DNA of 37,385 nucleotides from a virus (lineage: Duplodnaviria > Heunggongvirae > Uroviricota > Caudoviricetes), in the IMG/VR virus record IMGVR_UViG_2913123054_000004. One strand, 5' to 3'. The notes below the pieces were generated by a model that was not told where the DNA came from, searched no databases, and saw only the letters and a program-made list of their open reading frames with translations. The position numbers were made by a program, and so were the translations under genes. Positions 10,048 to 37,385 of the stretch are shown here, piece after piece (the first letter of the stretch is position 1; every line of letters begins with the position of its first letter).

Positions 10048-10962
10048 ATGCCATACCAATTGGTAGAGCTTAGCCCCGTAGCTAACGATCTTGAACAGTT
10101 AGGAACCAAAGAGAAGTTTTGGTTCTATTTCTCCGATGACACTGTAAATTTGCAGTTGTTTAAGTACTCTAGGCCAGGTACTGGCGAGCATTGGTCTGAA
10201 AAGTGTGCTGCTGAGTTATGTCATTTGCTTAACATTCCACATGCTAGCTATGATTTGGCGCGATACAATGGTCGATTCGGTGTGGTGACTCAGAATATCA
10301 TTCCATCTGGTTTCCGGATGGTAATGGGAAATGAAGTGCTTCACAGTTCGACATTCGATTATCCTGGGCCTTTACAAGCCGGGGAAAAGCCGGTAAGGGT
10401 CAGAGAACACACTGTCACAAGGGTCTTGGGTTGTTTAGATAGGGAATCTATCAAGCCTCCTCCGAGTGTATATGATCTAACCGGGCTAAATGCAGCAGAT
10501 GTATTTTGTGGATATTTGATGCTCGATGCACTTGTGAGTAATCAAGATCGCCACCATGAAAATTGGGCAATCATGCTTAACAATGAAACTGGTGAGCAGT
10601 TTTTGTGTCCAACATACGATCATGCCGCTAGTTTAGGAAGGGAGATGTTAGATGATGAGCGTAACGAACGGCTTAATACTAAAGATAAAAATCGACAAAT
10701 CCCATGTTTTGTAAGAAAAGCTCGCTCTGAGCTATTCAAAGCAAAAACTGATAAAAAGCCCTTGCTGACTGTTGAAGCATTTCAACATGCAGTTGAAGGG
10801 AGAGTTGCCGCTCGCGACCATTGGTTAGGTAAGTTGAGCGTTTTAACAGAAGATTCCATTACAGATGTGTTTAACCAAGTGCCTTCATCGTGTATATCCG
10901 ACAGTGCACGTAGATTTGCAACGTTAATGGTAATGGAAAATCGCAGAAGGTTACTAGAATGA
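10048..10962 (+). CDS. HipA-family serine/threonine kinase, short form (core kinase domain only)
   Basis: 304 aa. P-loop-like LGTKEKFWF near the N-terminus, catalytic-loop motif DALVSNQDRHHENWAIM, metal-binding LCPTYDHAAS; same order as in HipA/HipT. RBS AGGGA upstream. Confidence 0.8.
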   Translation: MPYQLVELSPVANDLEQLGTKEKFWFYFSDDTVNLQLFKYSRPGTGEHWSEKCAAELCHLLNIPHASYDLARYNGRFGVVTQNIIPSGFRMVMGNEVLHSSTFDYPGPLQAGEKPVRVREHTVTRVLGCLDRESIKPPPSVYDLTGLNAADVFCGYLMLDALVSNQDRHHENWAIMLNNETGEQFLCPTYDHAASLGREMLDDERNERLNTKDKNRQIPCFVRKARSELFKAKTDKKPLLTVEAFQHAVEGRVAARDHWLGKLSVLTEDSITDVFNQVPSSCISDSARRFATLMVMENRRRLLE

Positions 10963-11699
10963 CTAATACAAACTCCGTTTACGTCGCATGGCAGGCACCA
11001 GATACCAGAGACTGGCATGTTGTTGGTAACTTGCAAGAGCGCAAATCGGGGTATGTTTTCAGGTATACCAAAGGTGCTCTTAAATCTTCTAAATTTACAA
11101 AGTTTAGCGGCATGAGTGATGTTCGTGAAACTTATGTATCGGAAGAATTGTTTCCTCTTTTTAAAAATCGCCTTTTATCACCGAGACGTCCAGAGTATCC
11201 GAGTTTCATTAAATGGCTTGGATTTGAAGAAGATAAGGTAAATCCTATCGATATTCTTGCTCGCTCGGGAGGCTTACGAAGCACTGATCAGCTGCAGATT
11301 TTCAAAAAAATTGATTTTGATTCTGATGGTAACTTTGAGCATTTTTTCTTCTTACATGGACTTGGTTACTTGAATAGCTTAGCTAATGCTCGTGTATCTG
11401 AATTGAAACCGGGGCAAATTTTGCGTCTTTGCTTGGATCTTCAAAATGAATACGATGGGGATGCTGTTGTCGTTCGTGCAGATAAACCAGCTGAAATCGT
11501 TGGTTACTGCCCTAGGTATTTAAGTAATGACATCAAGAAGATGTTATTGGATGATCCAAAATCAATCACTTTAACGGTCGAAAAGATTAGTGATGATGCT
11601 CCTCATAACTATCGGTTATTATGTAAATTATCAGGGGTACTAAGCCAAGCCTGTCAATCGACGCTGATTCCTCAAGATGAGTTTGAACCTATTGAGTAA
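10959..11699 (+). CDS. HipS-like (HipA N-terminal subdomain-like) protein with C-terminal HIRAN domain; putative partner/antitoxin of the kinase
   Basis: 246 aa. Start overlaps kinase stop (ATGA). N-terminal half shows HipA N-subdomain-like patterns (EELFPLFKNRLLSPRRP, PIDILARSGGLRSTD). C-terminal ~90 aa has HIRAN hallmarks (LQNEYDGDAVVV...EIVGYCPRYL). Confidence 0.75.
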   Translation: MTNTNSVYVAWQAPDTRDWHVVGNLQERKSGYVFRYTKGALKSSKFTKFSGMSDVRETYVSEELFPLFKNRLLSPRRPEYPSFIKWLGFEEDKVNPIDILARSGGLRSTDQLQIFKKIDFDSDGNFEHFFFLHGLGYLNSLANARVSELKPGQILRLCLDLQNEYDGDAVVVRADKPAEIVGYCPRYLSNDIKKMLLDDPKSITLTVEKISDDAPHNYRLLCKLSGVLSQACQSTLIPQDEFEPIE

Positions 11700-19096: not shown

Positions 19097-19521
19097 ACCG
19101 GTTGCTGCTGGTTGTGCTGGCGTTATTACTGGCGGCGCTGGGCTGGCAGACGTGGCGGCTGGCTGATGCCAGCCAGACCATCAGCACGCAGGCAGACGAG
19201 CTTCGGAGTAAAAGCCAGGCACTGGCAAAGAGCAACAGCCAGCTTATCAGCCTGTCCATTCTGACTGAAACCAATAACCGGGAGCAGGCGCGGCTCTATG
19301 CCGACGCAGAACAGACCAGCGCGCTGCTGAGACAACGACAACGCCGGATTGAGGAACTGAAACGTGAGAACGAGGATTTACGCCGCTGGGCTGATACTCC
19401 TTTGCCTGCTGACATTATCCGGCTGCGGGAACGTCCGGCACTCACCGGAGGTGCAGCTTACCGTCAGTGGTTGTCCGCGAGTGACGCCGTGTTGGCTGGG
19501 GCAGGCAGCGCCGCGCACTAA
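19093..19521 (+). CDS. lysB: LysB, Rz-like inner-membrane spanin
   Basis: 142 aa with N-terminal TM helix and coiled-coil periplasmic domain. Confidence 0.7.
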   Translation: MNRLLLVVLALLLAALGWQTWRLADASQTISTQADELRSKSQALAKSNSQLISLSILTETNNREQARLYADAEQTSALLRQRQRRIEELKRENEDLRRWADTPLPADIIRLRERPALTGGAAYRQWLSASDAVLAGAGSAAH

Positions 19522-19654
19522 CGGTGATCTGAACGCGTTGCTGGATGAAACGGAGGCCGCCTGGGCGGTCTGTGCAGACAAAGTGGACATGATTATTGCG
19601 TGTCAGGAGCGAAACAGTGAACAAACCACAATCCCTGCGCCACGCCCTCAATAA
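19364..19654 (+). CDS. lysC: LysC, Rz1-like outer-membrane lipoprotein spanin, encoded in an alternative frame overlapping lysB
   Basis: 96 aa with lipobox LTLSGC and Pro-rich tail; begins inside lysB in another frame. Confidence 0.65.
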   Translation: MRTRIYAAGLILLCLLTLSGCGNVRHSPEVQLTVSGCPRVTPCWLGQAAPRTNGDLNALLDETEAAWAVCADKVDMIIACQERNSEQTTIPAPRPQ

Positions 19655-20048
19655 AGCGGTGCCTTATGTCCGCAATAACCCGGACAAACTGCATCTGTTT
19701 GTGGATAACGGTTCGCTGGTTGCCACGGGGGCCAGCTCCATGTCGTGGGAGTACCGTTACACCCTGAACGCGGTGATTGAGGATTTCAGCGGCGACCAGA
19801 ATCTGCTGATGGCCCCGGTTTTGCTGTGGCTGAGGGATAACCAGCCCGATGCCATCAATAACCCGGCGTTACGGGAAAAACTATTCACCTTTGAGGTGGA
19901 TATTCTGCGCAACGATGTCTGTGATATCAGCCTGAACCTGCAACTGACGGAGCGTGTGCTGGTCAGCACTGACGGCAGTGTGTCGAGCGTTGAAGCTATA
20001 GCGGAACCTGATGAACCTGAAGAAATGTGGACGGTGAAACGTGGCTGA
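19596..20048 (+). CDS. R: Tail completion protein R (P2 gpR-like)
   Basis: Matches gpR; an in-frame GTG at 19616 is the start that aligns best with P2 gpR. Confidence 0.8.
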   Translation: MRVRSETVNKPQSLRHALNKAVPYVRNNPDKLHLFVDNGSLVATGASSMSWEYRYTLNAVIEDFSGDQNLLMAPVLLWLRDNQPDAINNPALREKLFTFEVDILRNDVCDISLNLQLTERVLVSTDGSVSSVEAIAEPDEPEEMWTVKRG

Positions 20049-20487
20049 ACTGCAGAAAGTGGACGACTGGCTGAGTGCCTTGCTGGCGAATCTGGAGCCA
20101 GCCGCCAGAAGCCGCATGATGCGCCAGCTGGCGCAGGAACTGCGCCGGGCACAGCAGCAGAACATCAGGATGCAACGCAATCCTGATGGCAGCAGCTATG
20201 AACCGAGGCGAGTAACAGCACGCAGTAAAAAAGGCCGCATCAAACGGCAGATGTTTACAAAACTTCGCACCAAAAAATACCTGAAAATCGCCGCCAGCAC
20301 GGATTCTGCCAGCGTGCAGTTTGAAGGTAAGGTGCAGCGTATTGCCCGCGTTCACCATTACGGACTTCGTGACCGAGTCAGCAAGAAGGGGCCTGAAGTA
20401 AATTATACTCAACGCCAACTACTAGGGGTCAACGAAAGCTCTCAGTTATTAGTTCGAGATGCATTGTTGCGTTTATTAACTTTTTAA
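20041..20487 (+). CDS. S: Tail completion protein S (P2 gpS-like); last ~30 codons AT-rich, possibly altered by the adjacent insertion
   Basis: 148 aa; N-terminal two-thirds gpS-like. Confidence 0.8.
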   Translation: MAELQKVDDWLSALLANLEPAARSRMMRQLAQELRRAQQQNIRMQRNPDGSSYEPRRVTARSKKGRIKRQMFTKLRTKKYLKIAASTDSASVQFEGKVQRIARVHHYGLRDRVSKKGPEVNYTQRQLLGVNESSQLLVRDALLRLLTF

Positions 20488-20504
20488 ATATCATCATTTA
20501 ATTT

Positions 20505-21064
20505 CTATTCATTATTTTTTAGTTTTTTGGATAAAAAGAATAGTCCAGCGATACATATGATCAATAGCACTACAGAAATAGAATTGTGAACTGTCCATTT
20601 GTCTGGGTCTATTACTGAAAGCATGAGTAGTATTACTGAAGCTATACCGAGCATTATAGGTTCTACTGCTTCATCAGGTCCTTTTGTTATAAGCATAAAT
20701 GCAAGTTGAAAACCACATGATACTGCGAGTGCTTTAGCAACATAACTTAGGGTTTTGATTTGTCGTATGTGGGCGAAGAATGGCTGTGATGATATATCGA
20801 TTGGCCAGAATGTATCCGCTAGTTCAACTGTACCCTTGAATAAAAGGAACCCTGTTAAGCCGATAAATATAAGACGTTGACAAAAAAATTGAATTCTATC
20901 TGCAGATTTTTCAGTTTCGGTTTTTTTTCGTCTTCAGGAGTTTTGAGTTCTTCCACCTTATATTTGAAAATATTCTTAATGTCTTTTTTAAACTGATTGC
21001 TTCCAAAGAACGCAATTGCAATGGCTGCGATTAATAAGGATGTTATTACGGATGTAGGCGTCAT
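20505..21064 (-). pseudogene. Membrane-protein moron split by a frameshift at a homopolymer tract (A8 at 20921-20928 or A7 at 20882-20888 on the coding strand)
   Basis: Two minus-strand ORFs (20855-21064 and 20505-20696); the downstream frame stays open back to 20933. One extra base in either A-tract would fuse them into ~186 codons with about five hydrophobic helices. Confidence 0.5.
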
Positions 21065-21076
21065 AACGAGCTAATT

Positions 21077-21094
21077 TGTGTGGTCGATTGTACA
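21077..21094. promoter_or_regulatory. Ogr-type late-promoter element (TGT-N12-ACA) upstream of V
   Basis: TGTGTGGTCGATTGTACA; same form as the O and FI sites. Confidence 0.45.
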
Positions 21095-21141
21095 TGCTGT
21101 TCAGATTACATCAGAATTTTAGTCATGACATCATTTTCTAT

Positions 21142-21720
21142 ATGAATAGACAACTAACCGAGATCATGCGCCTTATCACCAACCTGATCCGCACTGGTGT
21201 AGTCACCGAAGTGGACCGGGAAAACTGGCTTTGCCGGGTGAAAACAGGCGACTTAGAAACTAACTGGATCAACTGGCTGACGCTGCGTGCCGGGAATGCC
21301 CGCACATGGTGGCGACCATCGGAAGGTGAGCAGGTGGTGCTGCTGAGTCTGGGCGGCAATCTGGAGACCGCCTTTGCGCTGCCCGCTGTCTATTCGAATC
21401 AGTTCGCACCACCGTCGACGTCGGCGGACGCCTGCGTGACAGAACATCCTGACGGCGGCTGGTTTGAATACGAACCCGCCACCGGGCGCTGGTATGTCAG
21501 GGGCATCAAATCCATGGTCATTGAGGCTGCCGACAACATCACCCTGAAAACCAGTGAGTTTGTGCTGGAGGCTGACCGCACGCGTATTAACAGCGAAGTG
21601 GTGATCAATGGTGGCGTTACCCAGGGCGGCGGTGCAATGAGTTCTAACGGGATCGTGGTTGATGCGCATCAGCATACTGGCGTTCTGAAAGGCGGTGACA
21701 CCACCGGAGGCCCGGTATGA
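21142..21720 (+). CDS. V: Baseplate spike protein (P2 gpV-like)
   Basis: ATG at 21142 (MNRQLTEIMRLITNLIRTGVVTEVD...) aligns with the gpV N-terminus; the ORF track starts upstream at 21076. Confidence 0.85.
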   Translation: MNRQLTEIMRLITNLIRTGVVTEVDRENWLCRVKTGDLETNWINWLTLRAGNARTWWRPSEGEQVVLLSLGGNLETAFALPAVYSNQFAPPSTSADACVTEHPDGGWFEYEPATGRWYVRGIKSMVIEAADNITLKTSEFVLEADRTRINSEVVINGGVTQGGGAMSSNGIVVDAHQHTGVLKGGDTTGGPV

Positions 21721-25551: not shown

Positions 25552-26589
25552 TTATATTTGCCTACCTCCTAATAAAATGTGTGAGGTGTATTTGTTGGTT
25601 TTCAATAACCTTGCTACAATTATGCAGGTGGTTACAATAAGGAAAACAAATGAAGGGGTTATGATGAGGTTATATATGAGTGGATTTTCGCATAGGTTAT
25701 TAATGTTCACGTATGCCTCTATTCTGTAAAAAATAAACGACGAGATTATATAGATGGGAAAGGTGTAAGTACCGACAAAGGATGTGGCTCGTATAAATAA
25801 ATTGTTTTTCGTTGATAAAAATGTATAAGCATATATAAGCGATATGCTTCCGGCGAAGCCAATGAAGTAGCGAAATATAATAATGAATGATTGATGCCAG
25901 AAATCAACATTCTCATATGTCATTTTAGATATGTAAATATAATACTCTCTATTCCATAGGAGAAGCATGCCAATCCATGTTAATACGGATAACACACCAA
26001 TTTTGTGCCTATTTCTAGAGGCAAAATCTAAAATGCGATGGGCGGATATACCAGCGATAAAATAAGGGGCCATAAATTTAATTTTGTCCATATTCCAATC
26101 ATCTCCATATGCAAGGGATATACTAAATATCAGTAAATAAAGCACCACAGAATATTGTTTGCTTATTGAGTGACAAATAGTATAAACAATAGATACTGCA
26201 AAGAGTGCAGAAAGGAACCAGAAGGCGTAGATGGCTCCATATCTAATATTTATTAAATTTATATCTCTTCCCACAAAAATGGATTCAGCAATGAACCATG
26301 CAATGGATGGGATTATTAACTGCATGAATTTTCTTTTGATAATTGATGATGGTTTTCTCTTGAGAGAAAAATAGAAAAGATAGCCGCTAAGCAGCATAAA
26401 AAATGGCATGTGGAAGCTGTAAATGGTAATAAATAATGGGTTGTCAAAAAAATTTAAACTATCTTTTTTTACAAACTGAATTGAATGGCCCCACACGACA
26501 AAAATTATAGCTAATCCTTTCATTGAGTCTATAATGGAATTTCGAGTGCTGGGTGTCTCTGTTATAATAAGATGTGGTTCGTTTTTCAT
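25552..26589 (-). CDS. Acyltransferase family 3 membrane protein (O-antigen/LPS acetylase-like), probable lysogenic conversion gene
   Basis: 345 aa, ~10 hydrophobic segments, AT-rich; family-typical motifs GLAIIFVVWGHS and HMPFFMLLSGYLF near the N-terminus. Confidence 0.8.
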   Translation of the reverse strand: MKNEPHLIITETPSTRNSIIDSMKGLAIIFVVWGHSIQFVKKDSLNFFDNPLFITIYSFHMPFFMLLSGYLFYFSLKRKPSSIIKRKFMQLIIPSIAWFIAESIFVGRDINLINIRYGAIYAFWFLSALFAVSIVYTICHSISKQYSVVLYLLIFSISLAYGDDWNMDKIKFMAPYFIAGISAHRILDFASRNRHKIGVLSVLTWIGMLLLWNREYYIYISKMTYENVDFWHQSFIIIFRYFIGFAGSISLIYAYTFLSTKNNLFIRATSFVGTYTFPIYIISSFIFYRIEAYVNINNLCENPLIYNLIITPSFVFLIVTTCIIVARLLKTNKYTSHILLGGRQI

Positions 26590-34311: not shown

Positions 34312-34530
34312 ATGATGATTTGCCCACTGTGTGGAAGTGCCGCCCATACTCGCAGCAGTTTTCAGGTATCTTCATTGACCAAAGAGCGTTACAACCAGTG
34401 CCAGAACATTAACTGCAGCCATACTTTTGTTACCCATGAAACTTTTGTTCGTTCGATTGCAACGCCAAAAGAGTCAAATCCGGTTCAGCCGCATCCAATG
34501 AAATCAGGACAGATGGCGCTCTCTCTTTGA
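34312..34530 (+). CDS. ogr: Ogr/Delta-family zinc-finger late transcription activator
   Basis: 72 aa from ATG 34312 (MMICPLCGSAAHTRSS...CQNINCSHTF); matches the P2 Ogr pattern. The ORF track starts upstream at 34279. Confidence 0.85.
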   Translation: MMICPLCGSAAHTRSSFQVSSLTKERYNQCQNINCSHTFVTHETFVRSIATPKESNPVQPHPMKSGQMALSL

Positions 34531-34610
34531 CGCTGCCGCCATTTTGTCGCCATCGTTAAAAAACAGTGCTTCTAACATCATGATTTTAAACGGCATAAAT
34601 TTCAGGCAAC

Positions 34611-34653
34611 AAAAAACCCATCAACCTTGAACCAAAATGGCGGGGTTGATGGG
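34611..34653 (-). terminator. Hairpin plus T-run on the minus strand downstream of ybjL (probable ybjL terminator, near the prophage right junction)
   Basis: Minus strand reads CCCATCAACC, 17-nt loop, GGTTGATGGG, TTTTTT. Confidence 0.4.
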
Positions 34654-34765
34654 CTCCACAAAATGGGGACATCAAAGAAAAGCAGTGGCACTAATTAAGA
34701 CTGATGCCCCAAAGAAAAGTTCGCCGATTGTACAAAAAAATTTCATTTTCAGGGCAACTTCAGTT

Positions 34766-36451
34766 TTATCCGAGTCCTGGCCATACCATGACAATGATTG
34801 TCCCGGCCAGCGTTAGCAGTACGTTAGCTATTGCATAAGTGCCCGCATAACCTAAGGCTGGGATGTTACTGCGTGCGGTGTCGCTGATGATCTCCATTGC
34901 CGGAGCACAAGTACGCGCACCCATCATCGCGCCGAACAGGAGTGCGCGGTTCATACGCAGTACATAAGCGCCGAACAGGAAGCAGATAACCACCGGTACC
35001 AGACTGACAATCAATCCGGCAATTAACATCTGACCACCGATCGCGCCCAGGCCGTTATTAATACCGCTACCGGCGCTTAAACCAACGCCTGCCATAAACA
35101 CCATCAAGCCGAACTCTTTCACCATGCTTAACGCCCCCTGCGGAATGTAACCGAAGGTCGGGTGGTTAGCGCGCATAAAGCCCAACATAATGCCGGCGAA
35201 TAACAAGCCAGCAGCGTTACCCATGCCAAAGCTAAATGTACTGAACTGGAAGGTAATCATCCCGATCATCAGGCCAATAACAAAGAACGCGCAGAATGCC
35301 AGCAGGTCTGTGACCTGGCTGTGAATCGAGATAAAGCCGATGCGGTCAGCAATGGTTTTCACGCGACGGGCATCGCCGCTCACCTGTAAAACATCACCTT
35401 TATTAAGCACAACGTTGTCATCAATTGGCATCTCAATCTGGCTGCGGATGACGCGGTTAAGGAAGCAACCGTGATCGGTCAACTTTAGTTGTGCCAGACG
35501 TTTACCTACCGCGTTATGGTTTTTGACGACGACCTCTTCAGTGACGATACGCATGTCGAGAAGGTCACGATCAAAAACTTCTTTACCGTTACGGAAGCTG
35601 GGATCGAGGCGGGCGTGGGCGTCTGGATATCCCACTAACGCTATCTCATCGCCCATTTGCAGTACGGCGTCGCCATCTGGATTTGCCAGAATCCCGTTAC
35701 GACGAATACGTTCAATGTAGCAACCAGTTTGACGATAAATACCCAATTCACGCAGATTTTTGCCGTCGGTCCAGGCCACCAGCTCCGGGCCGACACGGTA
35801 GGCGCGGATCACCGGCAAATAAACTTTGCGGCTGGCATCGGTGTCCAGGCCACGTTCGCGAGCGATTTGTTGGGCGCTGGTCTGTAAATCCTGATGTTGC
35901 AACTTCGGTAAATAACGTGCACCGACAATTAAACTCACCAGGCCAATTAAATAGGTTAACGCATACCCAAGGCTTAGATTATCCAGTGCCGTGGTGAGCT
36001 GTCCGCTTTCCATACCGGAATGGCGTAATGTGTCGCCAGCACCGACCAGAACCGGTGTCGATGTCATGGAGCCAGCCAACATACCGGCCGTCAGACCGAT
36101 ATCCCAGCCAAACAGCTTACCCAACCCTAAGGCGATCGCCAGCGCACTGCTAACCATCACCAGAGCTAACATTAGGTAATTTTTCCCATCGCGGAAAAAA
36201 ATGGAAAAAAAGTTGGGTCCGGCTTCGACCCCGACGCAGAAAATAAACAACATAAAGCCAAGATTAAGCGCGTCGGTGTTAATGCTGAAATGTTGTTGCC
36301 CTAATAGTAACGATACGACTAAAACGCCAATGGAATTACCCAGTTGGATTGAACCAAGTCGTAATTTTCCTAGACATAGTCCAAGCGCAAGGACTACAAA
36401 TAATAACAGAATGTAATTCCCATTTAACAATTCGGCGACGTTTATATTCAC
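34766..36451 (-). CDS. ybjL: Putative transport protein YbjL (host gene)
   Basis: 561 aa, N-terminus [33 protein letters not shown] matches remembered E. coli YbjL; higher GC, host-like codon usage. Confidence 0.9.
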
Positions 36452-36718
36452 GGAGACTAACTTCTTGTTTACGAGTAAGCTGTTGAAAGAAATGGTAATT
36501 TAAGATAATGTTTTCACCTGAAATCAGGGCGCGGATTCATTCAGCGCACATAAGCAATAGTAAAGAAACAATATATTTTACTAGTGTAATCACATTAAGT
36601 ACCAACGGCTATAAAAATTGCGTTGGCCTATATTAGCATGGAATGCGAAGCGGCTTTATCTTACTGAACGCCATAGTGGCGAAAATGTGTTCGATAGAGG
36701 CAGTGTCAGGAGGAGCGA

Positions 36719-37096
36719 GTGAAACATAAACAACGTTGGGCGGGGGCAATCTGCTGTTTTGTCCTCTTCATTGTAGTGTGCCTGTTCCTGGCGACGCAAA
36801 TGAAAGGCGCTTTTCGGGCTGCCGGGCATCCTGAAATCGGCTTGCTGTTTTTCATTCTTCCTGGGGCGGTTGCCAGCTTTTTTTCGCAGCGTAGAGAAGT
36901 CCTTAAACCGCTGTTTGGCGCAATGCTGGCGGCACCGTGTTCTATGTTAATTATGCGTCTGTTTTTTTCACCAACACGCTCATTCTGGCAAGAGTTGGCA
37001 TGGTTATTGAGCGCCGTCTTCTGGTGTGCGTTGGGGGCGTTGTGTTTCTTGTTTATTAGTAGTTTGTTCAAGTCACAGCACAGAAAAAATCAATAA
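36719..37096 (+). CDS. ybjM: Inner membrane protein YbjM (host gene)
   Basis: 125-aa hydrophobic protein between ybjL and grxA, as in E. coli K-12. Confidence 0.8.
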   Translation: MKHKQRWAGAICCFVLFIVVCLFLATQMKGAFRAAGHPEIGLLFFILPGAVASFFSQRREVLKPLFGAMLAAPCSMLIMRLFFSPTRSFWQELAWLLSAVFWCALGALCFLFISSLFKSQHRKNQ

Positions 37097-37127
37097 AGCC
37101 CTCAAACAGAGAGGGCTTATCCGGCAA

Positions 37128-37385
37128 TCAGGCTTCAAGATTCTCTTTCACCCAGGCAGCAAAATCGGTATAGCCGCCGATGTGTTGCTGATCGACAAAA
37201 ATCTGCGGTACGGTTTCTACTGGTTTACCCGCTTTCTGTTGTAAATCTTCTTTGCTAATCCCTTCTGCACGAATATCAACATACTGATATTCAAAGTCAT
37301 CGCGTTCATTACTCAGTTTGTCTGCCAACTCTTTAGCACGCACGCAGTAAGGGCAACCCGGACGACCAAAAATAACGGTTTGCAT
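37128..37385 (-). CDS. grxA: Glutaredoxin 1 (host gene)
   Basis: 85 aa with CPYC active site (MQTVIFGRPGCPYCVRAKELA...); start codon at the window edge. Confidence 0.9.
   Translation of the reverse strand: MQTVIFGRPGCPYCVRAKELADKLSNERDDFEYQYVDIRAEGISKEDLQQKAGKPVETVPQIFVDQQHIGGYTDFAAWVKENLEA

Follow-up and report, generated by a model that had tools for sequence, protein, structure and literature searches.

A probable one-base contraction of a poly-A run interrupts a membrane-protein cargo gene of P2-like Escherichia prophages

Introduction

Between the tail genes S and V of a P2-like prophage, two short, overlapping reading frames lie on the minus strand of an AT-rich stretch of DNA. The question they raise is whether they are separate genes or the two halves of one gene whose frame has been broken and, if the latter, how the break arose. 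A reading made from the sequence alone had proposed a single multi-pass membrane-protein gene of about 186 codons, interrupted by a 1-nt frameshift in a homopolymer, and had offered slipped-strand phase variation, a recent inactivating mutation or a homopolymer sequencing error as explanations. Here, we followed up that proposal in the 37,385-nt stretch in which the prophage was found (IMG/VR record IMGVR_UViG_2913123054_000004; hereafter the window), using homologous proteins, alleles of the gene in other assemblies and comparisons with known systems. We refer to the cargo gene between S and V as the moron, and to its alleles by the length of the adenine run on the coding strand (A8, A9).

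Results and Discussion

The prophage and its host

A RybB sRNA was found on the minus strand at the right edge of the prophage (34608-34686; RF00110, 106 bits), and, in a comparison with 5,420 E. coli genomes, identity was only 91.7% for the chromosomal flank (34400-37385), which contains ybjL, ybjM and grxA. The prophage therefore resides in a non-coli Escherichia, one that is similar to E. marmotae. Two further sites of the prophage held cargo. The TO region between gpA and Q encoded a two-gene candidate defence pair on the plus strand, the first gene of which (10048-10962) matched PADLOC PDC-M03A (2e-122) and, weakly, HipA_C, and the second (10959-11699) matched PDC-M03B (7e-93) and contained a HIRAN domain (1e-13). 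A third cargo gene, located downstream of the tail-fibre genes on the minus strand (25552-26589), encoded an Acyl_transf_3 membrane acyltransferase (3e-26), and Acyl_transf_3 genes were situated at the same position in loci L003, L018, L019, L021, L022, L024, L025 and L028-L030.

An AT-rich cassette in the S-V slot

The GC profile, homology breakpoints and an empty-slot comparator delimited an AT-rich variable cassette at approximately 20382-21127, in the 'orf30 slot' of the P2-like prophage; it takes in the final ~34 codons of S and the moron, which encodes a membrane protein, and extends into the upstream part of the region that holds the V late promoter. GC content was 0.30-0.40 across 20400-21100 versus 0.55-0.63 in both flanks, and 0.35 in the moron itself versus 0.56-0.58 in the backbone, bearing out, together with its coordinates, the AT-rich island that the sequence-only reading had described between S and V. 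Homology to E. coli P2-like prophages without this cargo ended at ~20381-20399 and resumed at ~21115-21128, and in one empty-slot E. coli P2-like prophage the gap between S and V was 68 nt. The island was missing from all 5,426 of the complete E. coli genomes searched and from the phage collection.

Both neighbouring genes are encoded on the plus strand. The tail-completion gene S (20041-20487, 148 aa) was identified from the ORF list, from the Pfam domain Phage_tail_S on the identical gene of L003, and from alignments with S of P2 and other phages; it ended 17 nt from the moron stop codon. The baseplate gene V (21142-21720), encoding 192 aa from an MNRQLTEIMRL start, was identified by Phage_base_V on homologous genes. 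Codons ~115-148 of S were a diverged, AT-rich but still alignable version that travelled with the cassette, with a GC content of 0.36 in the last 90 nt versus 0.56 elsewhere in the gene, and carriers from Klebsiella and Pantoea had the same AT-rich tail, which P2 lacks. The drop in GC, together with a break in homology near S codon 114, supports the earlier suggestion that the insertion remodelled the C terminus of S. Direct reading of the plus strand also revealed a TGT-N12-ACA dyad (21077-21094). It is separated from the moron ATG by 13 nt and precedes the V ATG by 48-65 nt, and its position matches that of the annotated P2 activator site upstream of V. An equivalent dyad was present in the empty-slot prophage, and we infer that the element serves the V operon promoter as a late-activator site of the Ogr/Delta type. 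A consensus scan of 20350-21250 identified neither a promoter nor a terminator for the moron, and an Rfam scan gave no match inside the island.

S and V had previously been taken to be adjacent in P2. This was incorrect: in P2, a minus-strand gene for the non-essential Orf30 (261 aa) separates the O-operon terminator from the V-promoter activator site, and it is in some E. coli P2-like prophages that the slot is empty. P2-like phages have three recognised variable cargo regions, namely TO, Z/fun and orf30 (PMC3091744), and further cargo has been noted in the orf30 region (PMC6823313). By its position between S and V, its non-backbone composition and its presence or absence among relatives, the moron belongs to the cargo of this region, and in every homolog locus examined, across four genera, it was located in the S-V slot on the opposite strand. 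It has in common with P2 orf30 the slot between the end of the O operon (S) and the V late promoter, the opposite orientation, the character of non-essential cargo and a low GC content (0.34 in P2 orf30, 0.35 in the moron). Unlike Orf30, the cargo here is a membrane protein with five transmembrane (TM) helices, without detectable homology to the P2 protein; Orf30 was considered as a relative and rejected as unrelated (hhalign probability 0.6%), placing the moron outside the Orf30 protein family. A second difference concerns S, whose final ~34 codons are replaced by the cassette; in P2, S is not AT-rich at its 3' end (GC 0.52). Across 15 loci of the L001-L030 set, the moron cassette varied at only 4 of ~560 columns, compared to 47 of ~875 in the adjoining S and R genes at 19135-20487, and the carrier phage backbones were only ~96% identical. 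With so few variable columns on such divergent backbones, the moron cassette appears to have spread recently between P2-like phages.

A single membrane-protein gene with a broken frame

The upstream half of the moron was a 69-codon ORF on the minus strand, taken from the ORF list (20855-21064, ATG at 21064), and the same 69-aa product had been called in other assemblies. Codons 1-48 are authentic and encode TM1, an amphipathic helix and the start of a charged linker; codons 49-69 form an out-of-frame tail that ends in a stop. The downstream half, identified from the reading frames (20505-20921, minus strand), lay in the -1 frame relative to this ATG and comprised codons 49-186 and the stop, carrying TM2-TM5 and a near-invariant core, KTLSYVAKALAVSCGFQLAFMLITKGPDEAVEPIMLGIASVILLMLS. 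This downstream frame was open from ~20935 to its stop at 20505-20507, with no ATG, GTG or TTG before 20696, and for comparison with its stop-free run of 142 codons, runs of at least 143 codons occurred in only 3 of 5,000 composition-preserving shuffles, which speaks against a chance opening. The two frames overlap from ~20935 to 20855, and one base added inside the overlap gives a single ORF of 186 codons. The earlier description of one minus-strand, multi-pass gene with a broken frame, its coordinates and its repaired ORF were thereby upheld.

Searches with the fused protein identified 36 homologs (E values 6e-113 to 7e-22; 39-99% identical; 157-292 aa) from sources including Escherichia, Klebsiella, Citrobacter and Pantoea. 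Every one of the 36 was a single ORF spanning both halves, which refutes a reading as two small genes. The topology of the fused product was consistent: hydropathy resolved five hydrophobic TM helices, with K/R-rich loops or linker and the C terminus on one side, and an AlphaFold2 model of the fused protein was all-helical (pLDDT 74.6). The homolog alignment contained 46 invariant columns, most of them in the C-terminal core KTLSYVAxALAxSCGFQLAYMLxTxGPDEAVEPIMLGIASxILLxLS. Compared with the 81%-identical allele of locus L027, dN/dS was 0.087 overall, 0.315 for codons 1-55 and 0.029 for codons 56-186. Judged by these codon substitutions, the intact gene is under strong purifying selection and, since the lowest ratio lies downstream of the break, the frameshift cuts off the most constrained part of the protein. 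The L027 gene also illustrates that members of this family are easily mis-annotated even when unbroken, as the gene caller had picked an internal ATG (179-652, 157 aa) though the 186-codon ORF was intact from position 92.

Tract-length alleles at the frameshift site

Phased from the ATG at 21064, the frameshift site is a run of eight adenines on the coding strand (minus; T8 on the plus strand) at 20921-20928, with codons GA[A AAA AAA] CCG. Two tracts had been put forward as places where one added base would repair the frame. The run at 20921-20928 held up, as intact alleles have A9 there; the other, at 20882-20888 (A7 on the plus strand, T7 on the coding minus strand), was rejected as the lesion because it was unchanged across intact and frameshifted alleles. 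A database protein from E. marmotae (WP_181474859.1/QLV00748.1; P0037) has exactly the sequence that the window ORF would encode with one A added, and its DNA has A9. The commonest Escherichia allele (P0038, 103 index blocks) reads E-K-K-T at this point, and the copies examined have A9. In total, A9 (GAA AAA AAA ACC, E-K-K-T) was found in L021-L026, L028-L030 and the metagenome copy L035, and A8 in the window, L003, L004 and L017-L020. As the protein predicted from a one-base repair exists in the database with A9 in its DNA, the lesion is, from comparison of alleles, a contraction of A9 to A8 at 20921-20928.

L001 and L002 have A3-C-A5 at this site (E-T-K-T), and the window differed from P0001/L001/L002 at two places in 630 nt, namely S9F and GAAACAAAAACC versus GAAAAAAAACC. 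From these loci only, deletion of the C could have created A8; this candidate was rejected when exact look-ups put A9 in the commonest allele and in the protein with the one-base repair, and by its sequence A3-C-A5 is a third, tract-interrupted variant. Interruptions are also predicted from protein sequence in P0040 (E-R-K-T, implying AGA) and P0049 (E-N-K-S), distant homologs have no tract, and the L027 allele has an in-frame A8. Exact look-ups found no A10, A12, A6 or F9-A8 alleles, though the A10 product (51 aa) might escape gene calling. A scan of viral contigs for the moron gave 0 matches, scans of genome contigs by profile and by degenerate motif gave nothing usable, and a metagenome scan yielded the one A9 copy (L035).

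Recurrence of the A8 allele

The A8 allele was present in at least seven contigs on four haplotype or phage backgrounds, drawn from NCBI assemblies and from independent Logan assemblies of different runs (including GCA_005781255.1, GCA_021080205.1, SRR12298613, SRR31115909, SRR31271602 and SRR15115957). For A9, the tally of index blocks or contigs exceeded 110, with SRR15115881 and SRR11948874 among the sequencing runs that carry it. One background is that of the window and L003 (GCA_005781255.1; allele G21), which were 100% identical over the 10,210 nt fetched, so that L003 probably represents the source genome or a clone-mate of it; L003 was recorded in four samples, and no A9 copy was found on this backbone. 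The remaining three each have a near-identical A9 twin, differing by 0-2 substitutions apart from the tract. L004, which also has the G21 allele and whose V shows 24 mismatches to that of the window, was matched by L028 with 0 mismatches in 1,133 nt. On the R21 allele, L018, L019 and L020 (degraded prophage) were matched by L021, L024 and L025 with 0 mismatches in 1,074 nt, and L017 (intact prophage) by L023 and L026 with one to two substitutions. None of the A8 copies had a second lesion. In the degraded prophages L018, L019, L021 and L022, V-W-J-I was replaced by a 55-58 aa remnant, and in L019 and L021 a direct junction linked R to gpA and a D12 methyltransferase. All four retained the moron, as A9 or A8.

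Recurrent slippage is the best reading of this distribution of A8 across sequenced backgrounds. The pattern fits a mutational hot spot that would have been hit repeatedly and recently, and speaks against an old pseudogene. As A8 occurs on several backgrounds with A9 twins, a one-off sequencing error is unlikely, and of the three original options the data fit a slipped-strand change in recurrent form.

Inactivation at a mutational hot spot

We consider it probable that the gene in the window was inactivated at a mutational hot spot, with A8 as the OFF length of a hypermutable A9 run; the inactivation may be leaky. The A9 run would span codons 46-49 of the 186-codon gene for an inner-membrane protein, carried as P2-like cargo in a non-coli Escherichia, from which replication slippage is presumed to have dropped one A. 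The A8 codons, counted from the ATG, are GAA (46), AAA (47), AAA (48) and CCG (49), giving 48 authentic residues followed by PKLKNLQIEFNFFVNVLYLSA. Translation would thus end at 69 aa, with TM1, the amphipathic helix and 21 out-of-frame residues; such a product would be missing the four conserved helices (TM2-TM5) and the GPDEAVEP core, making the allele essentially null. Since L027 has an in-frame A8, the tract may be a by-product of Lys and Glu codons in an AT-rich linker, as opposed to a conserved switch.

A small fraction of full-length protein may nevertheless persist, either by RNA polymerase adding an extra A or by ribosomes slipping -1 on A_AAA_AAA_C, and either route would give exactly the protein of the A9 allele (...EDEKKTETEKS...). 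Such leaky rescue is plausible on the sequence of the tract. Transcription tends to slip on runs of ~9 A or T, which are also hypermutable, and an ORF broken at such a run can regain its frame in the mRNA (PMC1088944). In E. coli, insertions during transcription become exponentially more frequent as A/T runs lengthen, up to 9 nt (PMC5574713). The A8 allele is in this respect similar to the 'pseudo-pseudogenes' of Baranov et al. 2005 (PMC1088944), in which there is a 1-nt change in a run of 8-9 A, sister strains have intact single-ORF orthologues, and one A inserted in the mRNA restores the frame. It differs in that the broken run here, A8, is shorter than the 9 nt highlighted in that study, and in that restoration is predicted from sequence.

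Phased from the ATG at 21064, the A8 allele forms an in-phase -1 slippery heptamer (GA A_AAA_AAA CCG). This heptamer resembles dnaX and IS-element -1 sites of the A_AAA_AAG type in being in phase and in that the conserved continuation is read in the -1 frame; unlike those sites, it has neither stimulatory elements nor a conserved two-frame layout, and would have been made by mutation. In E. coli, A_AAA_AAA is less shifty than A_AAA_AAG. No stimulatory hairpin was found in the 80 nt downstream (MFE -7 kcal/mol, z +1.34; 183 of 200 shuffles folded at least as well).

Alternative explanations

Hot-spot inactivation is favoured over adaptive phase variation, in which A9 and A8 would be the ON and OFF states of a reversible, selected switch, allowing lysogen populations to hedge expression of the membrane protein. 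We regard this as unlikely, even though both tract lengths occur on otherwise identical or near-identical haplotypes of at least three backgrounds, the tract sits in the early part of the gene (codons 46-49 of 186), reversion of A8 copies would restore function as they have no secondary lesions, and the intact gene is evidently under strong purifying selection. Contingency loci of Campylobacter, Haemophilus and Neisseria are similar in that a homopolymer in the coding region takes an ON or an OFF length while the background is otherwise the same, and the moron indeed has a hypermutable coding tract that is polymorphic in length on identical backgrounds. Unlike in those loci, the tract is not conserved among homologs (ACA in L001 and L002, AGA inferred in P0040, none in distant homologs), and such switching is rare in the host genus: mismatch-repair-proficient Escherichia seldom rely on homopolymers for phase variation. 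OFF alleles are moreover a small minority (~7 contigs versus more than 110 A9 index blocks or contigs), and only contraction was observed, with no A10 found. It is quite unlikely that the A9/A8 pair is a useful phage-borne phase switch toggling an uncharacterised, widely conserved membrane protein that modifies the envelope or excludes phages. If true, such a switch would give Escherichia lysogens a type of contingency locus that is otherwise rare in enterobacteria.

We also evaluated whether the true tract is A9 throughout, with A8 a homopolymer undercall, including a systematic one, in sequencing or assembly. Long homopolymers are a classic site of indel errors, and here only one base of a 9-mer is affected, the changes seen all being contractions. 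Such an artefact is improbable when A8 is found in at least seven contigs on four backgrounds, from NCBI and from independent Logan assemblies of different runs, when a contig 100% identical to the window over 10,210 nt (L003) was recorded in four samples, and when more than 100 other assemblies resolve the tract as A9. The draft contigs of 250-510 kb would be typical of short-read consensus, which is usually right on 9-mers.

Programmed recoding would make the two-frame state functional, efficient slippage at A_AAA_AAA_C setting the ratio of 69-aa to 186-aa products. The slippery sequence is in phase, a -1 slip on it yields exactly the A9-allele protein, and broken ORFs restored by slippage at A/T runs are documented (PMC1088944). 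We nonetheless judge this very improbable, as the two-ORF layout was conserved in none of the 36 homologs, the site has neither a downstream stimulatory structure nor an upstream Shine-Dalgarno-like element, and A8, derived on several backgrounds, is the rarer allele. Finally, the reading of the locus as two separate genes for membrane peptides of 69 and 63 aa, prompted by callers annotating the 69-aa ORF and, in another allele (P0051), a 63-aa C-terminal ORF, is refuted by the single-ORF architecture of all homologs, by the ~80 open codons between the two, which contain no start codon, and by the position of the 63-aa ORF, which would begin within a conserved helix.

Possible function of the intact protein

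Annotation of the fused protein was sparse: all of its Pfam matches fell below cut-off, the only PADLOC match was partial (15.9 bits), PHROG E values were at least 0.13, and neither PDB nor BFVD yielded a fold match to the AlphaFold2 model at E<=0.001. Distant relatives likewise had nothing above the Pfam threshold. A profile search found 471 clusters (E<=1e-3) sharing a C-terminal three-helix core with a GPDEA(V/I)xP motif, within the core motif SCGFQLAYMLxTxGPDEAVEPIMLG, and Pfam matched 0 of 10 sampled members on this core. By profile similarity, the C-terminal core defines a large unannotated superfamily of membrane domains. Some superfamily members (among P0053-P0199) carry additional HTH, SHOCT or coiled-coil regions; the genomic contexts of two distant members were uninformative.

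Because of its position, strand and conservation as a family, the intact protein is most likely a membrane or envelope factor expressed in lysogens, for example for superinfection exclusion, although our confidence in this is low and it is the weakest step of the argument. The comparison is a functional analogy only: like prophage superinfection-exclusion and lysogenic-conversion proteins, the moron product would be a small multi-pass inner-membrane protein whose gene occupies a temperate-phage cargo slot and runs against the late genes, but unlike characterised exclusion proteins it has no sequence or fold similarity to any in Pfam, PADLOC, PHROG, PDB or BFVD.

Implications

For annotation, the two short ORFs between S and V are one gene and the break in it is a tract-length allele, not decay; pipelines split this gene or lose its downstream half, although exact comparators exist, WP_181474859.1 being the one-base repair. 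The phenomenon belongs to a known kind and leaves current understanding unchanged, making this a useful but ordinary finding, and it documents recurrent homopolymer switch-off of prophage cargo in natural Escherichia populations. It also offers a tractable system in which neutral loss at a hot spot, adaptive loss of a costly membrane protein and phase variation can be set against one another. With its strong constraint and, in every locus examined over four genera, its confinement to the P2-like S-V slot, the protein family itself is a sensible choice for functional screens of phage exclusion or envelope phenotypes.
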